This document shows, piece by piece, positions 111 through 8,224 of a stretch of DNA of 64,000 nucleotides. Each line of letters opens with the position of its first letter. Position 1 is the stretch's first letter. The notes under the pieces are model-generated. The model did not search any database. It was given only the letters and a program-made list of their open reading frames with translations, and was not told where the DNA came from. Location of the stretch: the IMG/VR virus record IMGVR_UViG_3300048848_000007, positions 6,411 through 70,410 of that record; one strand, given 5' to 3'. Source of the stretch: a virus. A program made the translations under genes and the position numbers.

Positions 111-313
111 TGGACGGGTTCTATGCATTCTGCATGTGGACGGCTTTCGTAGCGTTCATGTCCTTCGCCACTGGTAAATACTTCCCGGCTACTGACATTC
201 GTAAAGACTGCGGCCTGACGGGTGAAACCATCATCAGCAAGACCGTAATCAAGTGCAAGCCCGTGGCTGCCATCGTGGATGGTCATCGGGTTAATTTCGA
301 GGAAAAGGAGTAG
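110..313 (+). CDS. Small hypothetical membrane protein
   Basis: 67 aa with a hydrophobic N-terminus; translationally coupled to its neighbours. Confidence 0.7.
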   Translation: MDGFYAFCMWTAFVAFMSFATGKYFPATDIRKDCGLTGETIISKTVIKCKPVAAIVDGHRVNFEEKE

Positions 314-315
314 TT

Positions 316-963
316 ATGGGTAGTATGATCAAGCTGTTTGGCAACATCACCGCACACGGTGTCGAGTACAAACTCCCCGACAAACCCCCTTCTGAACTGG
401 TCTGGGTTGACCCCAAAGGCCATGTGAACTGCTGGTGCTCGGTACTGGGTGGCACATCCGGTTCCAGCTCCAGTCCTCGGACCGAGTTCCGTGAAACCAT
501 CAACGAGTTCTCCAGTGATAAATACAACTGGATCGTGGATGGCAAGACTACACATACCCTCGCAGGCACTGTCCGTGTCGAGCTGGCTCCGTCCAGTGGC
601 AAGGTCATCGTCGGTCAGATCCATGCCCACCTTGCTGGCAATCCATTCCTGATGGTGACCTGGTGGAACGGGTACATCCGTGTGGACATGCGCTTCAAGC
701 CTGATGGCGATGCCGTCAACGTACTCAAGCTGGCCTGCCCACTGAGCAAGTCCTTCAAGTACCTGATCACCATCAGCCCTGAAGGGATCATCCACATCAA
801 CCTGAACGGTGAAACCTTCACCACCAACGTGGACACAGCGTGGAAGGCTTGCCCCTTCTATTACAAGTTCGGTGCGTACTGCATCGACCATGAAGGTCCA
901 GCTGAAGAAGGTGCGTGGGTCGTCTACGAAGACTTTGCGGCGTTGCACGATGAAGCAGCTTAA
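316..963 (+). CDS. Polysaccharide lyase family 7 (alginate lyase-like)
   Basis: Has the three PL7 signature regions in order: SPRTEFRE, GQIHAH and YYKFGAY. No signal peptide seen. Confidence 0.85.
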   Translation: MGSMIKLFGNITAHGVEYKLPDKPPSELVWVDPKGHVNCWCSVLGGTSGSSSSPRTEFRETINEFSSDKYNWIVDGKTTHTLAGTVRVELAPSSGKVIVGQIHAHLAGNPFLMVTWWNGYIRVDMRFKPDGDAVNVLKLACPLSKSFKYLITISPEGIIHINLNGETFTTNVDTAWKACPFYYKFGAYCIDHEGPAEEGAWVVYEDFAALHDEAA

Positions 964-1219
964 CCAAGGGCAGCGGTTCACAACCGATCCCTTGGAGGCG
1001 ATTCGCACGGCGTTCCACGTGGAACAATCCGATGTTGGTCTGACCCAAGGCATGTACTTGGGCCAGCACGACTACACCTTTCAGGCCGACGACGTAGGCC
1101 GTTTGGTCGAGGTTGTTCAAGACATGTCCCCCGGATTTCTTTCGTGGGGGTTTGGGTCTGTGTTTGCAGACCTGCGTCAGCAATACCCCGATCCCAAACC
1201 TTATGTAGTCGAGGTATGA
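950..1219 (+). CDS. Hypothetical protein (89 aa)
   Basis: ATG at 950 (MKQLNQ...) overlaps the end of the lyase gene; trimmed from the 809 ORF. Confidence 0.65.
   Translation: MKQLNQGQRFTTDPLEAIRTAFHVEQSDVGLTQGMYLGQHDYTFQADDVGRLVEVVQDMSPGFLSWGFGSVFADLRQQYPDPKPYVVEV
1011..1026. promoter_or_regulatory. parS: parS-like centromere site (CGTTCCACGTGGAACA)
   Basis: Perfect 14-bp palindrome GTTCCACGTGGAAC, matching the bacterial chromosomal parS consensus. Lies inside a CDS. Confidence 0.7.
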
Positions 1220-1222
1220 CCC

Positions 1223-1597
1223 ATGTCGCTGTTCCCCTTGGTTCCCGATGACCTGATTGAGCGTAGGAATCAAATCCTCCTGCGTATCCATCGGTTCGTT
1301 GAAGTACGGGACTTAGGCTTCGTCTTGGACGATAAGCCCAGCCCCTGCCACATCTGGACTGGTGGCGATTCTGGCAACGGTCGAGGCGGTGGCTATGGCC
1401 GTGTCTCCATCAATGGGGAAACAGCGGCTGTTCACCGTGTCGTCTACACCCATTTCTATGGGTATGTCCCTACAAAGAAACAGATCGATCACAAGTGCAA
1501 CAACCGCTTGTGCTGCAATCCTGCCCATCTTGAGATGGTCAGCCATCTCAAGAATCAGCGGCTCCGTGCGAAGCGAGCCAGGGAAACCAGAGCATGA
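1223..1597 (+). CDS. HNH endonuclease
   Basis: VHRVVY...IDHKCNNRLCCNPAHL...N motif. Confidence 0.9.
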   Translation: MSLFPLVPDDLIERRNQILLRIHRFVEVRDLGFVLDDKPSPCHIWTGGDSGNGRGGGYGRVSINGETAAVHRVVYTHFYGYVPTKKQIDHKCNNRLCCNPAHLEMVSHLKNQRLRAKRARETRA

Positions 1598-1899
1598 ATA
1601 CTGAATGCACTGAAGAGATGTATGAGGCGTTCAAAGAGGTGATGCGTGGTCCTAGCGCAGACACTGAGACTTACGCTGATCTGGTGAAAAATGCCATTGA
1701 AGCCGCACTTCGGGTGAAAGCTCGGGATGAACTGGAAATCCTTGGCTACACCCGAGAGGGCAAGCCGATCCATCCAATCAAACCAGGCATGATCGCCACT
1801 GCCTGCACCATCGTGTGTGCTGGCTGCCGGACAACCATCCGTGGCATGGGTGGCCCGATGCAAGGTGCCGTCTGCGTCCAATGCTGGGAGAAGAAGTGA
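1594..1899 (+). CDS. Hypothetical protein with C-terminal CxxC...CxxC (putative zinc ribbon)
   Basis: CAGC and CVQC motifs; overlapping start and stop codons with neighbours. Confidence 0.7.
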   Translation: MNTECTEEMYEAFKEVMRGPSADTETYADLVKNAIEAALRVKARDELEILGYTREGKPIHPIKPGMIATACTIVCAGCRTTIRGMGGPMQGAVCVQCWEKK

Positions 1900-2393
1900 T
1901 GAACCAAGAGAAGAAATTCGACTTCGAGCATATCGACGTCAAGCTGTACCTGGCGTTGAGAAAAGTCACAGCAGAGTATCAAGTGGTGGTTAACGGCCCT
2001 GAATTCTCTGGCTCTGGTGACTGGGTGATGATCAAACAGTGTGAAGATGCACTGGAAGAATTCGAGCTGTCCCACGGTCCACTGCCTGACTGGGCTGTTG
2101 CCCGTAACTGGGCCTACGAACTGGTGCCCGGTGCTCAGCTGATGACCAAAGACGGTCGTGTCACTGGCAATGCCCACATCTTACGATGCCATCCAAAAGA
2201 GTCCGGTCTTGAGTTGAGACCACTCTACGACTGCATCACTGATGCCGGTTCGTACATCCATGGATTCAGTGAAGCTGAAATTCACAATCAATTCTGGATT
2301 GGTGATTACGTCTCCGATCCACAAACCCTCATCGCCCGTTTCGGCAACCATGGCGAAGACTACGGAGTTCGGCAAAATGACTCAGTTCAGTGA
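1899..2393 (+). CDS. Hypothetical protein (164 aa)
   Basis: ATG at 1899 overlaps the previous stop (TGATG). Confidence 0.7.
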   Translation: MNQEKKFDFEHIDVKLYLALRKVTAEYQVVVNGPEFSGSGDWVMIKQCEDALEEFELSHGPLPDWAVARNWAYELVPGAQLMTKDGRVTGNAHILRCHPKESGLELRPLYDCITDAGSYIHGFSEAEIHNQFWIGDYVSDPQTLIARFGNHGEDYGVRQNDSVQ

Positions 2394-3018
2394 ATTCGGT
2401 GCTCGCCAGCGTTCCTACAAGCTGGTGCTCGATTACCTGCTCCAGTTCGGTATGACCAAGCTGGTCGAGAACGAAGACAGCGAGTACCCCAGAACCACTG
2501 GCGGACTCGTAGGATTCAGTCTGGGATCGTTTTCCAAGTCGGCTGTTAAGCCAGGTGACCTGGTTTTGCTGACCAGTGCCCATGCTGATAAGTGGCGTCT
2601 GAGCTGGCTCGTAGAGATGCTGCCCAACGAGATCTACCGCTGCGAGTCCCTGATAGACGGCGAGTTGGCTGACTGGTCCAACGTCGGCATCAGCTACTTT
2701 CATCGGCCCACAGTGGAACAACACCCCAACTGGAAGTGGACTGATGCTCAGCATGAGTTCTCTGACCGTTGGTTCGAGGCTGCCCGCAAGTGCGATGAGT
2801 ACATGTGGCGTCCCTGCTTACCTGACTTTCAGGAAGACGGATCTGTTGTTGTGGGGGTTCGGATGCGTCATGGCATGGGGGATTCCCCTCGTCCAACCAT
2901 CACCCTGCACCGCTGGAAAGCACTCACTGAGCGAATGCTCATCAACCGTTTCCGTGCCTTGGAGAAGACTGCCGAGGAACAATGGAAAGCTCACTGCGAG
3001 GCACGTAAAAATGTCTGA
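2377..3018 (+). CDS. Hypothetical protein (213 aa)
   Basis: Start MTQFSEF, coupled to the upstream gene; codon usage like its neighbours. Confidence 0.7.
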   Translation: MTQFSEFGARQRSYKLVLDYLLQFGMTKLVENEDSEYPRTTGGLVGFSLGSFSKSAVKPGDLVLLTSAHADKWRLSWLVEMLPNEIYRCESLIDGELADWSNVGISYFHRPTVEQHPNWKWTDAQHEFSDRWFEAARKCDEYMWRPCLPDFQEDGSVVVGVRMRHGMGDSPRPTITLHRWKALTERMLINRFRALEKTAEEQWKAHCEARKNV

Positions 3019-3397
3019 CCGTACCCCTACAACTGATGCCCTCGAAACCTTGGGCATGATCCACTTCAAGCCTGAAGCTCGTGATGCCATTCACCTTGCG
3101 GTGGATGCAGTGAAAGCAGGTTGTAATCTGTGTGCCGGTGAACGTATCGGCATCATTGACGGGGTTGCATGGCCTATCAATAAATTGATGGGGCATGAGC
3201 CGCCCAATGGCCATTTGACCTACAAAGTCCCGTATCACGGAATAGTCGATCCGTTCCTGCCAACCAAACGGTTGGGTGATACAGATATGACCTATAGCGT
3301 GCTGGAAGGTGAATCCTTCTGGTTCGTTATGGCTCCACGCATGGTCAAGAGCCTGCGTCATGTCTGGGAGCATCCTGATTTCCCGGAGGGTAAGTGA
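3011..3397 (+). CDS. Conserved N4-like hypothetical protein (gp22-like)
   Basis: DALETLG...RDAIHLAV...GIVDPFL...SLRHVWEHP pattern, recalled from N4-like phages upstream of the AAA ATPase. Confidence 0.7.
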   Translation: MSDRTPTTDALETLGMIHFKPEARDAIHLAVDAVKAGCNLCAGERIGIIDGVAWPINKLMGHEPPNGHLTYKVPYHGIVDPFLPTKRLGDTDMTYSVLEGESFWFVMAPRMVKSLRHVWEHPDFPEGK

Positions 3398-3750
3398 TGG
3401 AACATCCCTACCCACTGGAAGAACATGATGTTCGCTGTATGTGCGGTGATCCGGTGGCTCTGGCCTATGCCTGGATCAAAGGCTATGCCGAGAACCTCAA
3501 TGCCCTGTGCGGTGATCCAGACGACGAAGATGACGAATACTACGGTAGCGTTACCGTGGATGAGCTGCTGGAAGTTGCTGATAGCCAACAACCTCAAAGC
3601 GGTCATCGTTGGGGTGGTGACTACCTCTCCCGTGGTGGTGCTTTTGAAGGCTTATCCGTCGATCCCACCTTCTGGAAACACTACGCCGTGTTCCGGGGCA
3701 TCCCTGAAGACAAAGTGGAAGAAGCTCATTTCTTCTCCTGCTCCTGCTGA
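3394..3750 (+). CDS. Hypothetical protein
   Basis: Acidic 118-aa ORF ending CSC; start overlaps the previous stop. Confidence 0.7.
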   Translation: MMEHPYPLEEHDVRCMCGDPVALAYAWIKGYAENLNALCGDPDDEDDEYYGSVTVDELLEVADSQQPQSGHRWGGDYLSRGGAFEGLSVDPTFWKHYAVFRGIPEDKVEEAHFFSCSC

Positions 3751-3758
3751 GGCAAGCC

Positions 3759-4109
3759 ATGTCTGAACAGAAAATCACCATCGGCCTGATGGGGAGTCTG
3801 GTAAAGCCAATCCCTGACGGTCACAGAAATCCTCTCTGGGATGATATTCAAGATCGGCTGAACAAGGTCGATCTGGAGATCAACTACGAAGGCACGCTGA
3901 TCTATAGTCTGGAAATTCATAAAGACGCCTACGACTTCGACGGCCTGTCCATCGGCAACCCGGCCAACCCGGACGACTTCGTTCGTCTGTGTGCTGATCA
4001 GCTGATGCCCGTTTCACCTCACACCGTCGAGCCGTACTTCGCTCACTGGTACAACGGTGCAGACAGCCCAATGTCCACGCTGGAACTCGAAGAGTTCATG
4101 AAAACCTGA
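3759..4109 (+). CDS. Hypothetical protein
   Basis: 116-aa ORF with an upstream GAGG; followed by the parS site and a terminator. Confidence 0.7.
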   Translation: MSEQKITIGLMGSLVKPIPDGHRNPLWDDIQDRLNKVDLEINYEGTLIYSLEIHKDAYDFDGLSIGNPANPDDFVRLCADQLMPVSPHTVEPYFAHWYNGADSPMSTLELEEFMKT

Positions 4110-4110
4110 G

Positions 4111-4126
4111 TGTTTCACGTGGAACA
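4111..4126. promoter_or_regulatory. parS: parS-like centromere site (TGTTTCACGTGGAACA)
   Basis: Full 16-bp match to TGTTYCACGTGRAACA. Intergenic, immediately after a stop codon and before a terminator. Confidence 0.8.
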
Positions 4127-4127
4127 T

Positions 4128-4161
4128 AAAAATCCCCCATCGGAAACGGTGGGGGATTTTT
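4128..4161 (+). terminator. Rho-independent terminator (possibly bidirectional)
   Basis: AAAAATCCCCCATCG-GAAA-CGGTGGGGGATTTTT. Confidence 0.85.
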
Positions 4162-4192
4162 ATTTGGATATCAATTACTTATGGAGTTTCCC

Positions 4193-5233
4193 ATGGAACA
4201 GAACCTGTATCGTAGCACCCCGAGGAAGATCAGGGAGTACGTCCGGGACTGCATGTATGCAGGTCTGGTGCCGTATGTTCACTCTTCGCCGGGGATGGGC
4301 AAGTCAGCCATCATGGCCTCCCTGGCTAAAGAGCTGGACCTGAAGCTGATCGACCATCGTCTGTCCACTTCAGCCCCTGAAGACCTTTCCGGTCTGCCCC
4401 GTTTTCGTGAAGACGGCACTGCCGAATTCGCCCCGTTCGCTGACCTGTTCCCGCTGACCACTACTGCGATGCCGGAAGACAAGCAAGGCTGGATGCTCTT
4501 TCTCGATGAGTTCCCGTCTGCTTCCAAGTCGGTACAGGCCGCAGCCTACAAGCTGATCCTCGACAAGATGGTCGGCCAGCATAAGCTCCACGAGAACCTG
4601 TGCATTACGGCTGCCGGTAACCTGATGACCGACCGGGCCATCGTCAATCCGATCGGCACTGCCATGCAGAGCCGGGTAGTCCATCTGGAAATGGAACTCA
4701 GCTTTGATGAGTGGCTGTATGACGTGGCTCTGAAAGAGAACTACGACAGCCGGGTCATTGCTTACCTGTCCCAGTACCCGTCCAAGCTGATGGACTTCAA
4801 GCCCGACCACAACGAGAAGACCTTCTGCTGCCCTCGTACCTGGGAGTTCATGGAACGGCTGGTGCGAACCAAGGGGATGATCAAGGACGCTGACACGGCT
4901 CTGTACGCTGGCACCATCACCAGTGGTGTAGCAGCTGACTTCGTGCAGTTCACTCAGGTCTACGCCAACATCGTCAAGATCCCGGACATCCTCCGTGATC
5001 CTGCTGGCTGCTACCTGCCACAAGACGCCAACACTCGCTGGGCCACCATCTCTTCGATGATGGAACACGTGAACGAGAAGAACTTCGGTCCCATGTCCGA
5101 GTACGCCAATCGTTTCGATATGGCCTTCCGTATCCTGTTCTACCGCTCGGTGATGGTCCGTCAACCTGACCTGCGTACTCATGCTCCCTTCCGGGATGCC
5201 ATGTCCACCTTGTCCAAATACCTGCATGGGTGA
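4193..5233 (+). CDS. AAA+ ATPase (N4 gp24-like, MoxR-type)
   Basis: Walker A SSPGMGKS; Walker B LFLDEF. Confidence 0.9.
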   Translation: MEQNLYRSTPRKIREYVRDCMYAGLVPYVHSSPGMGKSAIMASLAKELDLKLIDHRLSTSAPEDLSGLPRFREDGTAEFAPFADLFPLTTTAMPEDKQGWMLFLDEFPSASKSVQAAAYKLILDKMVGQHKLHENLCITAAGNLMTDRAIVNPIGTAMQSRVVHLEMELSFDEWLYDVALKENYDSRVIAYLSQYPSKLMDFKPDHNEKTFCCPRTWEFMERLVRTKGMIKDADTALYAGTITSGVAADFVQFTQVYANIVKIPDILRDPAGCYLPQDANTRWATISSMMEHVNEKNFGPMSEYANRFDMAFRILFYRSVMVRQPDLRTHAPFRDAMSTLSKYLHG

Positions 5234-5236
5234 TCT

Positions 5237-6373
5237 ATGAACACACTGCCCGTTATCGATGAGTTCGAGCTGACCCGAGACTTTGACCGAACCAAGTCAA
5301 AGCTCTTCATCGGCAGCAATGCTGCGTTCTTCGGCTCTATCCTGTGCTCCATGGAGTTCATCTGGATGCCGGAGATCCCGACTGCTTGCACGGACGGTGT
5401 GTTCCTCGGCTGGAATCCTTACTGGTTCCTGAAGCTCCCCAAGAACACCCGTGTCACCGTGCTCATGCACGAGATCTGGCACGTAGGCCGTCTGCACGGA
5501 TTACGTCGTGGCACTCGTGACCCTGAATACTGGAATTACGCCTGCGATATCTGGATCAACAACCAGCTGGAGAAGGAGAAGTATTCGTTCGAGACAGTCG
5601 AAGACTGCTGGAAGAATCCCTACTACCTCGGCTGGGTGGAGGAAGACATCTACGATGATCTGGTCAAAAACCAGATACCTCCGCCTCCCGGTGGAACATG
5701 GGGGATGGGTGACTGTGACCTGAAGGAACCAAACGGGGATACTCAGGCCAAGAACCTCAACACCGTGGTCAAGGCTCTGCACACGGCCAAGGCCAGTGGT
5801 GCAGGCAGTCTGCCGGGTGACACCGAGATCATCATCAGGAAATTCCTGGAGCCTGTGGTTCCGTGGAACATCCTGCTGCTGGGCTTCTTCAACGACCTGC
5901 TCGATGAAGACTACACATGGGCCAGACCTAATCGCAGACACTCCGATATCTACCTGCCATCCCGTTTCACGGATGACGGTCGGTTGGAGCACCTGTGCTA
6001 CTACCTCGATGTGTCTGGTTCGATCAGCCGTCAGGATGTGATCCGCTTCAACTCTGAAGTCAAACACATCTGGGAGACGTTCAAGCCCCTCAAGCTGACC
6101 ATGATCCTGTTCGATACAGAGATCCAAAAGACCATCCAGTTCACGGAAGGGGACTTGTTCAACGAGATCCAGGTGACTGCTGGGGGCGGTACGTCCTTCA
6201 TCTGTGTGCGTGAGCACATGATGGAGACTCGGCCGACAGCTGCCATCATCTTCACGGATCTGGACTGTACCCCCATGTGTCCGCTTGATTACGATGTGCC
6301 CGTCATCTGGGTGGCAACTCGTGCAACAGGCCGGACAGTCCCTTTTGGCAAACTCATTCACATCAGGAAGTAG
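5237..6373 (+). CDS. Metallopeptidase-like plus vWA domain protein (N4 gp25-like)
   Basis: HEIWH zinc motif; MIDAS-like DVSGS; GGGT; adjacent to the AAA ATPase. Confidence 0.88.
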   Translation: MNTLPVIDEFELTRDFDRTKSKLFIGSNAAFFGSILCSMEFIWMPEIPTACTDGVFLGWNPYWFLKLPKNTRVTVLMHEIWHVGRLHGLRRGTRDPEYWNYACDIWINNQLEKEKYSFETVEDCWKNPYYLGWVEEDIYDDLVKNQIPPPPGGTWGMGDCDLKEPNGDTQAKNLNTVVKALHTAKASGAGSLPGDTEIIIRKFLEPVVPWNILLLGFFNDLLDEDYTWARPNRRHSDIYLPSRFTDDGRLEHLCYYLDVSGSISRQDVIRFNSEVKHIWETFKPLKLTMILFDTEIQKTIQFTEGDLFNEIQVTAGGGTSFICVREHMMETRPTAAIIFTDLDCTPMCPLDYDVPVIWVATRATGRTVPFGKLIHIRK

Positions 6374-6376
6374 TAC

Positions 6377-6880
6377 ATGGTCATCAACGGCAAGACGCTA
6401 TACGAGCTGGCCCCAATCAAGAACATGATCGCTGGCAAGGACACCGCCCATGGCACCAGCTATGGGCTGGGTGAAGCTGGCTACGATATCCGCATCAAGC
6501 AAGAGATCCGGTTTAAGCCCCAGCATCTACGTAATGGCATCACCAAGTTCGTACACGAAGTAGACGGATGGGGTAACCCCGGACGCTTCTGTCTGGCCTC
6601 GGCCATCGAAGAATTCGAGATGCCGTACAACCTGACCGGCATCGTCCACGACAAGTCCACTTGGGCACGTCGTGGCCTGTCAGTCTTCAACACCGTCATC
6701 GAACCGGGCTGGTCCGGTTTCCTGACTCTGGAGCTGGTCTACCAAGGGGAAGGTGAACTCCTTATCCCTGCTGGTTCAGGCATCGCTCAGGTCATGTTCC
6801 ACGAGCTGTCGGACGAGGCGGCCTACAACGGCAAGTACCAGAACCAGAAAGACAAGCCAGTCCCTGCCAAGAAATCCTGA
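6377..6880 (+). CDS. dcd: dCTP deaminase (N4 gp26-like)
   Basis: AGYDIR, DKSTWARRGL, VIEPGWSGFLTLEL, IAQVMF, YNGKYQNQ motifs. Confidence 0.92.
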   Translation: MVINGKTLYELAPIKNMIAGKDTAHGTSYGLGEAGYDIRIKQEIRFKPQHLRNGITKFVHEVDGWGNPGRFCLASAIEEFEMPYNLTGIVHDKSTWARRGLSVFNTVIEPGWSGFLTLELVYQGEGELLIPAGSGIAQVMFHELSDEAAYNGKYQNQKDKPVPAKKS

Positions 6881-6958
6881 TTGTTTTCTTGGATTGAAAA
6901 ACCCCTGAATCAAATAGGTAGTCGCTGCCTTTTCAGCGACATTACTGGAGAAGTACCC

Positions 6959-7171
6959 ATGGCATTTACCAAACTGAAATCTGGCGGTCAGCGTGTTCGT
7001 GTCGATCTGGCGAAGGTGGTTTACTTCACCGAGCTGGAAAGCGGCAGCACCTCGCTCAGCTTCATCAACGGCGACACTCTGGTCGTCGAAGAATCCTTCC
7101 AGACCGTCAGCAACCGTGCCAACGGTTCGGGCGAAGTGACCGCTGCTGTCTCGGTCGCTGAAGGCGCGTAA
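6959..7171 (+). CDS. Small hypothetical protein (FlbD-like beta pattern)
   Basis: GGAG Shine-Dalgarno; FTKL...VDLAKVVYF...TSLSFINGDTLVVEESF resembles the FlbD-like small-protein pattern. Confidence 0.6.
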   Translation: MAFTKLKSGGQRVRVDLAKVVYFTELESGSTSLSFINGDTLVVEESFQTVSNRANGSGEVTAAVSVAEGA

Positions 7172-7190
7172 GATTCCTGCCGGAACGCCT

Positions 7191-7450
7191 GGTCACCGTA
7201 AGTGACCCCGATGCACCTGTGCTGATTCACAGGCTGCATTGGTCAGGTAGCAGAGCTGCTCGGAGCAATATCATTCACCCCATGTGTAAGCCCTGCAATG
7301 CGCAGGCTTGTGGTAAGTAAGCTCAGAGCTGAAATGGTGATCTATGGTTTGTGGTTCGATTCCACTCGCTGGCAGTCAGGGGGACGCCCTGTGCTGCTAC
7401 CTGAACCAATGCAGCTTTCCCAATGAGAGAACTCCGGTTCTCTCTTTTTT
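7191..7450 (+). ncRNA. Putative structured ncRNA with a long closing stem and a tRNA-like T-arm
   Basis: 7233-7253 pairs with 7394-7415 (21 bp, one bulge). Internal hairpins include GTGG-TTCGATT-CCAC (7351-7365). Ends in a terminator. No plausible + strand ORF. Confidence 0.6.
7425..7450 (+). terminator. Rho-independent terminator
   Basis: GAGAGAAC-TCCG-GTTCTCTC followed by T6. Confidence 0.85.
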
Positions 7451-7732
7451 ATCGAGCCGGTTGGGAATGGCTGACTAGCGAAGGCGAAGCCGGAGTCTGT
7501 CTGGCATTCACGACTGGCCGCTGCCGCAGGCGACGTTCAGCTGACCCACTGCGGTGTGCCATGAGATACATAGAAGGGATGAGTTTCACCCCTATGTAAA
7601 TCAATGACTTAGACAGGGGGGTTCGTTCATCTGGATGAACACACCCCTGTTCAAATCCGAGTGCTATATCAGCCTGTATGTGCGCTATGCTATTCATGCT
7701 GTTCACTATCTCACAGACGTAGAGACACCATC
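7451..7732. other. Putative plasmid-type origin/operator region upstream of rep
   Basis: Non-coding; imperfect inverted repeats at 7569-7596 and 7613-7650; sits directly upstream of a Rep homologue. Confidence 0.45.
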
Positions 7733-8224
7733 ATGAGCGACCAGAAACCTGTGCGGTATCACCAATCCCCGGTACGGGGTACATGGGTTCAGACTGAGCG
7801 TGCAGGCCATGAGGCATGGGCAGCACTCACTCAGGCAAGCCCCAAGGCTGCCCAGCTGATGCACGTGCTCGTTGCCAACATGGATGAGAAGGGTGCCTTG
7901 GTGACCAGTCACAAGGTCTTGGCAGAGCTGTGCAGCGTGTCGGTCATGACCATACGCCGTGCAGTCGATACCCTGACCAAGCTCAATTTCATCCAGACCA
8001 TTCGCATCGGCAGTGAACGGGGTGGTGCCTTGGCCTACATCGTCAACAGCCGTATCGCATGGGCGGACAAGCGAGCCAACATCCGCTACGCCAAATTCAG
8101 TGCCACCGTGCTGGTATCGTCTGAAGAACAGAACGTCCTCGACGGTCCCCCACTCCGTCAGATCCCCCGCATTCAGGTCGAAGAAGACCTGGAACAGACT
8201 CTTGAGTTAACCGCAGTGCAATAA
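7733..8224 (+). CDS. rep: Plasmid replication initiator protein, pBBR1 Rep-like (winged HTH)
   Basis: GTWVQTERAGHEAWAAL...LMHVLVANM...HTH...AYIVNSRIAW...FSATVLV...LRQIP parallels pBBR1 Rep as recalled (GHWVQTERKAHEAWAGL...AYVVNDRVAW...FSAAVVV...LRRIP). Confidence 0.82.
   Translation: MSDQKPVRYHQSPVRGTWVQTERAGHEAWAALTQASPKAAQLMHVLVANMDEKGALVTSHKVLAELCSVSVMTIRRAVDTLTKLNFIQTIRIGSERGGALAYIVNSRIAWADKRANIRYAKFSATVLVSSEEQNVLDGPPLRQIPRIQVEEDLEQTLELTAVQ

Follow-up and report, generated by a model that had tools for sequence, protein, structure and literature searches.

Two copies of a Pseudomonas chromosomal-type parS site lie 3.1 kb apart in the genome of an N4-like phage that has no partition genes. 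We give a probability of about 0.55 to the reading that these are genuine, recently evolved sites for the ParB protein of the host, which probably position or partition the DNA of the phage in a carrier state similar to that of a plasmid. The DNA analysed here (the window, 64,000 nucleotides) comprises bases 6411-70410 of a virus record of 75,312 bp with 127-bp direct terminal repeats. The first-pass annotation had described a perfect palindrome encoding FHVE within the gene at 950-1219 and had counted two such sites in the window; the sequence at 1011-1026 and codons 21-26 of the gene agree with this description, and the second copy lies at 4111-4126. We refer to them as site 1 and site 2; they are listed in Table 1 with the features that surround them.

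Table 1. Features of the window that bear on the two parS sites (window coordinates)
Feature	Position	Strand	Remarks
PL7 alginate lyase	316-963	+	PF08787, E = 3e-29; among small middle genes, directly upstream of the site 1 gene
Gene P0001	950-1219	+	89 aa, no assigned function; hosts site 1; conserved in N4-like Pseudomonas-type phages
Site 1	1011-1026		CGTTCCACGTGGAACA; host-type parS; codons 21-26 of gene 950-1219
HNH endonuclease, free-standing	1223-1597	+	PF13392; directly after the gene bearing site 1
Gene P0003	3759-4109	+	116 aa, phrog_10749, no assigned function; ends immediately before site 2
Site 2	4111-4126		TGTTTCACGTGGAACA; intergenic; agrees with the general parS consensus TGTTNCACGTGNAACA at 16/16 positions
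Rho-independent terminator hairpin	4128-4166	+	15-16 bp stem and U tract; folding z = -5.4
AAA ATPase	4181-5233	+	N4 gp24-like; conserved anchor gene for locating relatives
Isolated half-parS heptamers GTTYCAC	222-7589		clustered; surround both full sites and reach the rep region
Rep homologue	7661-8224	+	59-67% identity to Pseudomonas plasmid initiators (IncP-9-type); weak HTH hits only in Pfam

The phage and its inferred host

The phage was identified as N4-like by an open reading frame of 3,545 aa that reads as the virion RNA polymerase and by a gp24-like AAA ATPase 55% identical to the N4 protein. Its closest cultured relative is Arace01, which was grown on Pseudomonas syringae and whose ATPase is 73% identical; the other nearest cultured relatives are CL and CRC2 (P. 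alcaligenes) and Ebordelon, Holyagarpour, and Zuri (P. putida). We infer a Pseudomonas-type host because these relatives grow on P. syringae, P. putida, and P. alcaligenes and because the phage carries a Pseudomonas plasmid Rep and an alginate lyase, the last of which fits a Pseudomonas or an Azotobacter host. The alginate lyase homologue of Arace01 sits elsewhere in that genome (L007 16420-17043). The HNH endonuclease gene is also kept in relatives but at a different placement, which indicates gene shuffling in the region.

Both sites match the chromosomal parS of Pseudomonas

Each site is a 16-bp inverted repeat with both GTTYCAC arms intact, the sequence features by which a chromosomal-type parS is recognized. 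The core of site 1 is the perfect 14-bp palindrome GTTCCACGTGGAAC (1012-1025) and that of site 2 is GTTTCACGTGGAAC (4112-4125). Site 1 agrees with the perfect Pseudomonas site, and with the general consensus, at 15 of 16 positions, an outer T being replaced by C.

Five Pseudomonas and Azotobacter genomes, reached through the Rep homologue, were scanned for GTTNCACGTGNAAC. Each contained 2-5 sites, all on one contig together with gidB-parA-parB, compared to 0-1 for a reversed control; in P. moorei, the sites fall within ~70 kb of gidB-parA-parB, and in the candidate host genus parA-parB is found next to its own parS cluster. Seven of the 18 host sites read were the perfect TGTTCCACGTGGAACA, while the remaining 11 had one outer mismatch, as does site 1. 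P. gingeri has a chromosomal site (L267) identical to the 16-mer of site 1, and P. moorei has one on the opposite strand (L257). The reverse complement of site 2, TGTTCCACGTGAAACA, is a chromosomal site in P. huaxiensis (L272), where the layout of stop codon, parS, and terminator is the one seen at site 2 of the phage. The assignment of the phage sites to the Pseudomonas chromosomal type, made in the first-pass annotation, is thus borne out by five genomes that carry such sites, exact 16-mers included, and by the binding of ParB to sites of this class (PMC5961200).

In P. aeruginosa, ParB has its highest affinity for perfect and one-mismatch parS, its best two half-sites are GTTCCAC and GTTTCAC, and one perfect or one-mismatch parS is enough for chromosome segregation (PMC5961200). 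Judging from their sequences, sites 1 and 2 are likely to be bound by the ParB of the host. They resemble parS1-parS4 of P. aeruginosa and the other Pseudomonas and Azotobacter clusters in having identical 16-bp sequences with GTTCCAC or GTTTCAC arms, in tolerating one outer mismatch, and in a spacing of a few kilobases; some host sites, too, are intragenic or are flanked by a stop codon and a terminator. They differ from host sites in having neither parA-parB nor gidB adjacent to them and in sharing no flanking homology, and their density is roughly 40-fold above that of the host genome.

As a separate observation on the host chromosomes, four of the genomes (G005, G006, G008, and G009, Pseudomonas and Azotobacter) contain a parS pair exactly 630 bp apart with conserved flanks (L258/L259, L261/L262, L265/L266, and L270/L271).

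A plasmid-type Rep gene and no partition proteins

No match to the ParB_N domain (PF02195) was detected in the 75-kb phage genome, and tblastn searches of that genome with host ParA and ParB as queries returned only hits with E > 0.05. By these searches, the phage encodes no ParA or ParB. Since it carries two host-type parS sites but no partition proteins of its own, the phage most likely borrows the ParB of its host, by analogy with the Bacillus phages considered below.

The rep gene is located 3.5 kb downstream of site 2 and 6.6 kb downstream of site 1. Relatives of its product are encoded by the plasmids Rsu2 (IncP-9-type, with rep annotated at position 1 of the plasmid record), pAd12, and pPL2 and by Azotobacter contigs. 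The Rep homologue is absent from the five complete relatives searched, which also have no parS. We considered co-capture of parS with Rep and rejected it: the five plasmids with the closest Rep lack an exact chromosomal parS, and the two one-mismatch hits among them are at chance level, with the mismatches in the core. The link between parS and Rep is therefore positional only.

Under the mechanism that we propose, host ParB dimers would bind sites 1 and 2 after infection, close into clamps in a CTP-dependent manner, and spread across a few kilobases, coating approximately the stretch between 1 and 10 kb, in which the rep module lies. The partition complex assembled on phage DNA would then engage host ParA, and the DNA would be positioned or segregated in the manner of a low-copy replicon. 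In combination with the captured plasmid Rep, parS may allow a normally lytic phage to persist as an inherited episome, in a carrier state or pseudolysogeny. That the selected benefit lies in partition or positioning of such a persisting episome is a tentative proposal, to which we would give slightly less than even odds. Against the episome, neither an integrase nor a repressor is known for this phage, nor is a plasmid state proven, and the N4-like phages, which are present in therapy and biocontrol collections, are classically strictly lytic. A stronger form of the proposal, in which a lytic N4-like phage with two de novo host-type centromeres, one of them made by recoding a phage gene, and a captured plasmid initiator is in transition to a phage-plasmid, is doubtful; such a phage, itself lacking an integrase, a repressor, and partition genes, would become a heritable episome that replicates and is partitioned via host ParABS.

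The phage-plasmids P1 (parABS) and N15 (sopABC) offer one comparison. A centromere in cis would stabilize an extrachromosomal phage replicon in the present phage as it does there, and the plasmid-type Rep gene near the sites adds to the likeness. However, P1 and N15 have their own ParA and ParB and their own non-chromosomal centromeres, whereas the present phage has neither protein and no parA-parB or sopA-sopB operon beside a centromere of its own. P1 and N15 are also bona fide temperate phages, while the present phage comes from a lytic family.

All of the evidence for real ParB sites also counts for a different use of them, in which ParB binding benefits the phage during lytic growth and no plasmid-like state exists. 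Hundreds of replicating genomes with two sites each could titrate ParB from the four or five ori-proximal sites of the host, perturbing host chromosome segregation and division; alternatively, the sites could recruit ParB-dependent SMC/condensin or shield phage DNA, so that the phage DNA itself is organized. The numbers are compatible with titration, as the host has only 2-5 full sites and a replicating phage would outnumber them, and so are the lytic biology of the N4-like phages and the lack of any sign of lysogeny in the relatives. Moreover, when ParB is lost or redistributed in P. aeruginosa, many genes change in expression and growth is affected (PMC5961200). Yet there is little to gain from disturbed segregation in a host that dies within one cycle, no relative has needed a decoy of this kind, and the captured plasmid Rep nearby, which the five complete relatives lack, is left unexplained. 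We therefore regard a purely lytic use of the sites as unlikely.

Number of sites and chance expectation

The first-pass annotation had estimated the chance of a match to GTTYCACGTGRAAC at about 1e-3 per 64 kb, and this arithmetic is correct. For GTTNCACGTGNAAC, Markov models of order 1-3, with the sites masked or unmasked, predict 0.004-0.006 sites per genome and a probability of two or more sites of 0.7-1.8e-5, or about 1e-5. The hexamer CACGTG is under-represented in the genome (10 observed versus about 18-21 expected), and two sites are therefore less likely still. When the class is restricted to that used by Pseudomonas (GTTYCAC arms with at most one outer mismatch, 28 sixteen-mers), our own arithmetic gives ~5e-4 sites expected per genome and a probability of two of ~1e-7. 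Approximately 250,000 windows were screened, over which ~0.03 such pairs would be expected; a probability of ~1e-7 survives this correction, while 1e-5 alone is not negligible.

Sites 1 and 2 are the only exact sites in the whole 75,312-bp genome, and the window contains no further match at up to two mismatches. Their similarity to each other ends exactly at the edges of the 16-mer, and the flanks are unrelated. The genome contains six perfect 14-bp palindromes; palindromy by itself is thus ordinary, and it is the parS sequence that stands out.

Isolated half-sites are also unevenly distributed: 13 of the 37 in the genome fall within 8.1 kb, in a cluster that starts ~430 bp before the window (scan statistic P ~0.004, with the size of the scanned interval picked post hoc). 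This clustering lends weak support to the real-parS reading. Two of the half-sites in the cluster, at genome positions 5979 and 5990, are direct repeats 11 bp apart.

Site 1 lies in a resident phage gene

The gene that hosts site 1 has no match to any Pfam or PHROG family. It is nevertheless a real gene, since its product P0001 has 28 homologues (54-73% identity) with 17 invariant columns. Read in frame, site 1 is GCG TTC CAC GTG GAA CAA, which encodes A21 F22 H23 V24 E25 Q26. The parS core in this frame demands Phe-His-Val-Glu followed by a codon with C as its first base, and thereby imposes His (CAC) at codon 23 and a C-initial codon at 26. The homologue consensus at codons 21-26 is AFLVEE, compared to AFHVEQ in the window protein, and position 23 is hydrophobic (L, V, I, or M) in 27 of the 28 homologues. 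Only the window protein combines FHVE with the C-initial codon (0/28 homologues do), and none of the homologues is therefore able to carry the 14-mer.

Once the peptide is given, the probability of the 14-mer is 0.014, and A21 is encoded by GCG, a rare codon that accounts for 12% of Ala codons. In seven relatives, the orthologous 14-mers have 3-8 mismatches across the 12 specified positions; Arace01, for example, has GCT TTT TTG GTT GAA GAG at these codons. The first-pass annotation had proposed asking whether the DNA motif is conserved at synonymous positions and whether homologues keep the peptide but lose the palindrome. No homologue keeps the site, and the sole one that keeps FHVE, P0008 (locus L131), has ATTCCATGTGGAAT, with three mismatches to parS. 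It follows from P0008 that His23 is tolerated and that the peptide alone is not enough to yield parS; near-sites of this kind can arise via coding alone.

By these comparisons, site 1 arose in place, in a resident phage gene, through an L-to-H change, an E-to-Q change, and the use of a rare Ala codon. Site 1 also illustrates how cheaply such a site can evolve, by a few substitutions in a resident gene at the cost of two amino-acid changes.

In the near-site of P0008 (L131:10058-10078), the outer changes (G to A and C to T) are symmetric, and the outer positions are still able to pair. This near-site could be a decayed site, an alternative site, or a coincidence.

Site 2 is intergenic, flanked by a stop codon and a terminator

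Site 2 starts 2 nt past the stop codon of the gene at 3759-4109 and is directly followed by a terminator, which was overlooked by a simple scan and confirmed by folding. The terminator is conserved in Arace01 (AAAAATCCCCC...GGGGGATTTTT, z = -5.1), where parS is absent: an unrelated sequence takes the place of the 16-mer, and the upstream gene is different. P0003 was not found at the corresponding position in Arace01 or in the Zuri-like phage.

Three sources from which a site might have been brought in were considered. For transfer of P0003 and parS as a mobile cassette, the P0003 homologues are uninformative: they are <40% identical and occur mostly in E. coli jumbo phages, and E. coli itself is without ParABS. 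Import from host DNA is rejected for the donors sampled, as the sequences that flank the phage sites have nothing in common with those around the 18 host parS sites. Import from plasmids, again for sampled donors, was addressed by a blastn search of window positions 3700-4200 against plasmids, which returned no match.

Neither site is conserved in relatives

Six complete relatives (the Zuri-like phage, Arace01, CL, Ebordelon, Holyagarpour, and Meara) contained no site at one mismatch or fewer, and neither did three IMG/VR records that have a distant ATPase homologue (one of them complete, two partial) or four loci (14-20 kb) of other relatives. Inspection of the relatives' loci at the DNA level (Zuri-like L003, Arace01 L007, and L131-L135) likewise showed the site to be absent from all of them. 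Conservation at the same locus, by which a parS may be recognized, is thus not seen here. Because the sites are absent from all relatives sampled, they provide no evidence of purifying selection and are young. Searches with P0001, P0003, and P0004 as queries returned no near-identical genome, the best P0001 match having 73% amino-acid identity. Taken at the level of sequence, both sites are lineage-specific novelties on a conserved backbone.

The first-pass annotation had inferred that site 1 was selected for loading of host ParB. The part of this proposal that stands is carried by the improbability of the sites (~1e-5), the match to host sites, the synonymous choices (1.4%), and the context, including the lack of a ParB encoded by the phage; conservation does not contribute to it.

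The lack of conservation in any relative is also what would be expected if both sites were neutral, with site 1 a by-product of FHVE and codon usage, site 2 derived from an inserted gene or its junction, and neither of them used. The three-mismatch near-site in an FHVE-encoding homologue and the six perfect 14-bp palindromes of the genome fit this explanation, and so does the very large number of windows screened, among which rare coincidences are expected somewhere. Chance is opposed by the probability of two or more sites (~1e-5, or ~1e-7 for host-type 16-mers), by the 1.4% probability of the 14-mer given its peptide, and by the identity of both 16-mers to natural host sites. In addition, the parS 16-mer exceeds its reversed control at least 40-fold in viral contigs, indicating that parS on viral DNA is generally not due to chance. 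Taken together, these figures make a neutral origin of the pair improbable.

In N4-type phages, DNA hairpins with 3-nt loops and conserved flanks serve as early promoters. Short hairpins are possible at both sites and an HNH endonuclease gene lies 200 bp downstream of site 1, but it is very improbable that the sites are virion RNA polymerase promoters, operators of a phage regulator, or an HNH-linked target, given that their distances from the left end (7.4 and 10.5 kb) place them downstream of the RNAPII genes, whose position is taken from relatives, and outside the early-promoter region, that their likeness ends at the 16-mer, that the site 1 hairpin is no more stable than shuffled sequence (z = -1.4), that the HNH gene is retained in relatives lacking the site, and that the exact match of both copies to host parS would be left as a coincidence.

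Precedent and generality

A precedent for the use of host ParB comes from the virulent Bacillus phages phi29 and Nf, in which host-type parS sites are bound by Spo0J and the phage is entrapped in the spore; in phi29, five parS sites are used with host Spo0J, which helps to bring the genome into the prespore (PMC2731898, summarizing Meijer et al. 2005). As far as they are described in that summary, phi29 and Nf share with the present phage membership of a lytic class, the lack of a ParB of their own, and several host-type parS copies. By this route a phage genome can enter the host segregation machinery and follow an alternative, non-lytic course, which we suggest for the present phage by analogy. 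The present phage belongs to a lytic family, lacks ParB, and has multiple host-type parS, as phi29 does. The systems also differ in several respects. The host here is a Gram-negative bacterium of Pseudomonas type that does not sporulate, so that entry into a spore is not an option; the phage has two sites, compared to the five given for phi29 in the summary cited; and the phage is an N4-like member of the Schitoviridae with direct terminal repeats at its ends, in contrast to the protein-primed phi29. Unlike those of phi29 and Nf, the present sites lie beside a captured plasmid Rep and are not common to any relative sampled.

Our search of the literature for phage parS used by host ParB identified phi29/Nf as the documented case and none further. 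The principle is therefore already known; what is new compared to phi29 is its occurrence in an N4-like phage of a Gram-negative host, with a site evolved in coding sequence and a captured plasmid initiator nearby. If the preferred reading of the sites as host ParB sites in a carrier state is true, an N4-like phage couples its DNA to host chromosome segregation using 16-bp sites only. It would provide a concrete mechanism by which Pseudomonas phages could enter a carrier state or pseudolysogeny, and the phi29 principle would reach beyond spore-formers to Gram-negative hosts.

At least 120 IMG/VR contigs contain the perfect site TGTTCCACGTGGAACA, compared to 3 that contain the reversed palindrome, whose base composition is equal. 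Among the matches listed, the parS-bearing contigs span 23-71% GC, and a chromosomal-type ParB was present in the fetched flank of 1 of 217 parS-bearing loci. Some of these contigs may be host contamination. Given an enrichment of the 16-mer of at least 40-fold over the control in viral contigs, orphan host-type parS may be a common, unrecognized persistence device of "virulent" phages.

Several individual contigs deserve mention. Between three and five parS sites are present in each of five IMG/VR contigs (L019, L030, L049, L050, and L051). An unrelated AT-rich viral contig (L013:2001-2228) encodes a small protein 43% identical to the product of the phage gene ending near window position 113, and a perfect TGTTTCACGTGAAACA lies 3 nt past the stop codon of the L013 gene, a single case that is possibly a coincidence. 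A tblastn search with all open reading frames of the window against the parS-bearing IMG/VR contigs detected no close relative and gave distant hits such as L198. This contig, from a distant phage, carries a gp24/gp25-like ATPase-vWA pair (26-30% identity), and an 18-bp palindromic parS, TTGTTCCACGTGGAACAA (L198:5743-5760), is located ~2.6 kb upstream of its ATPase gene, a relative position similar to that in the window.
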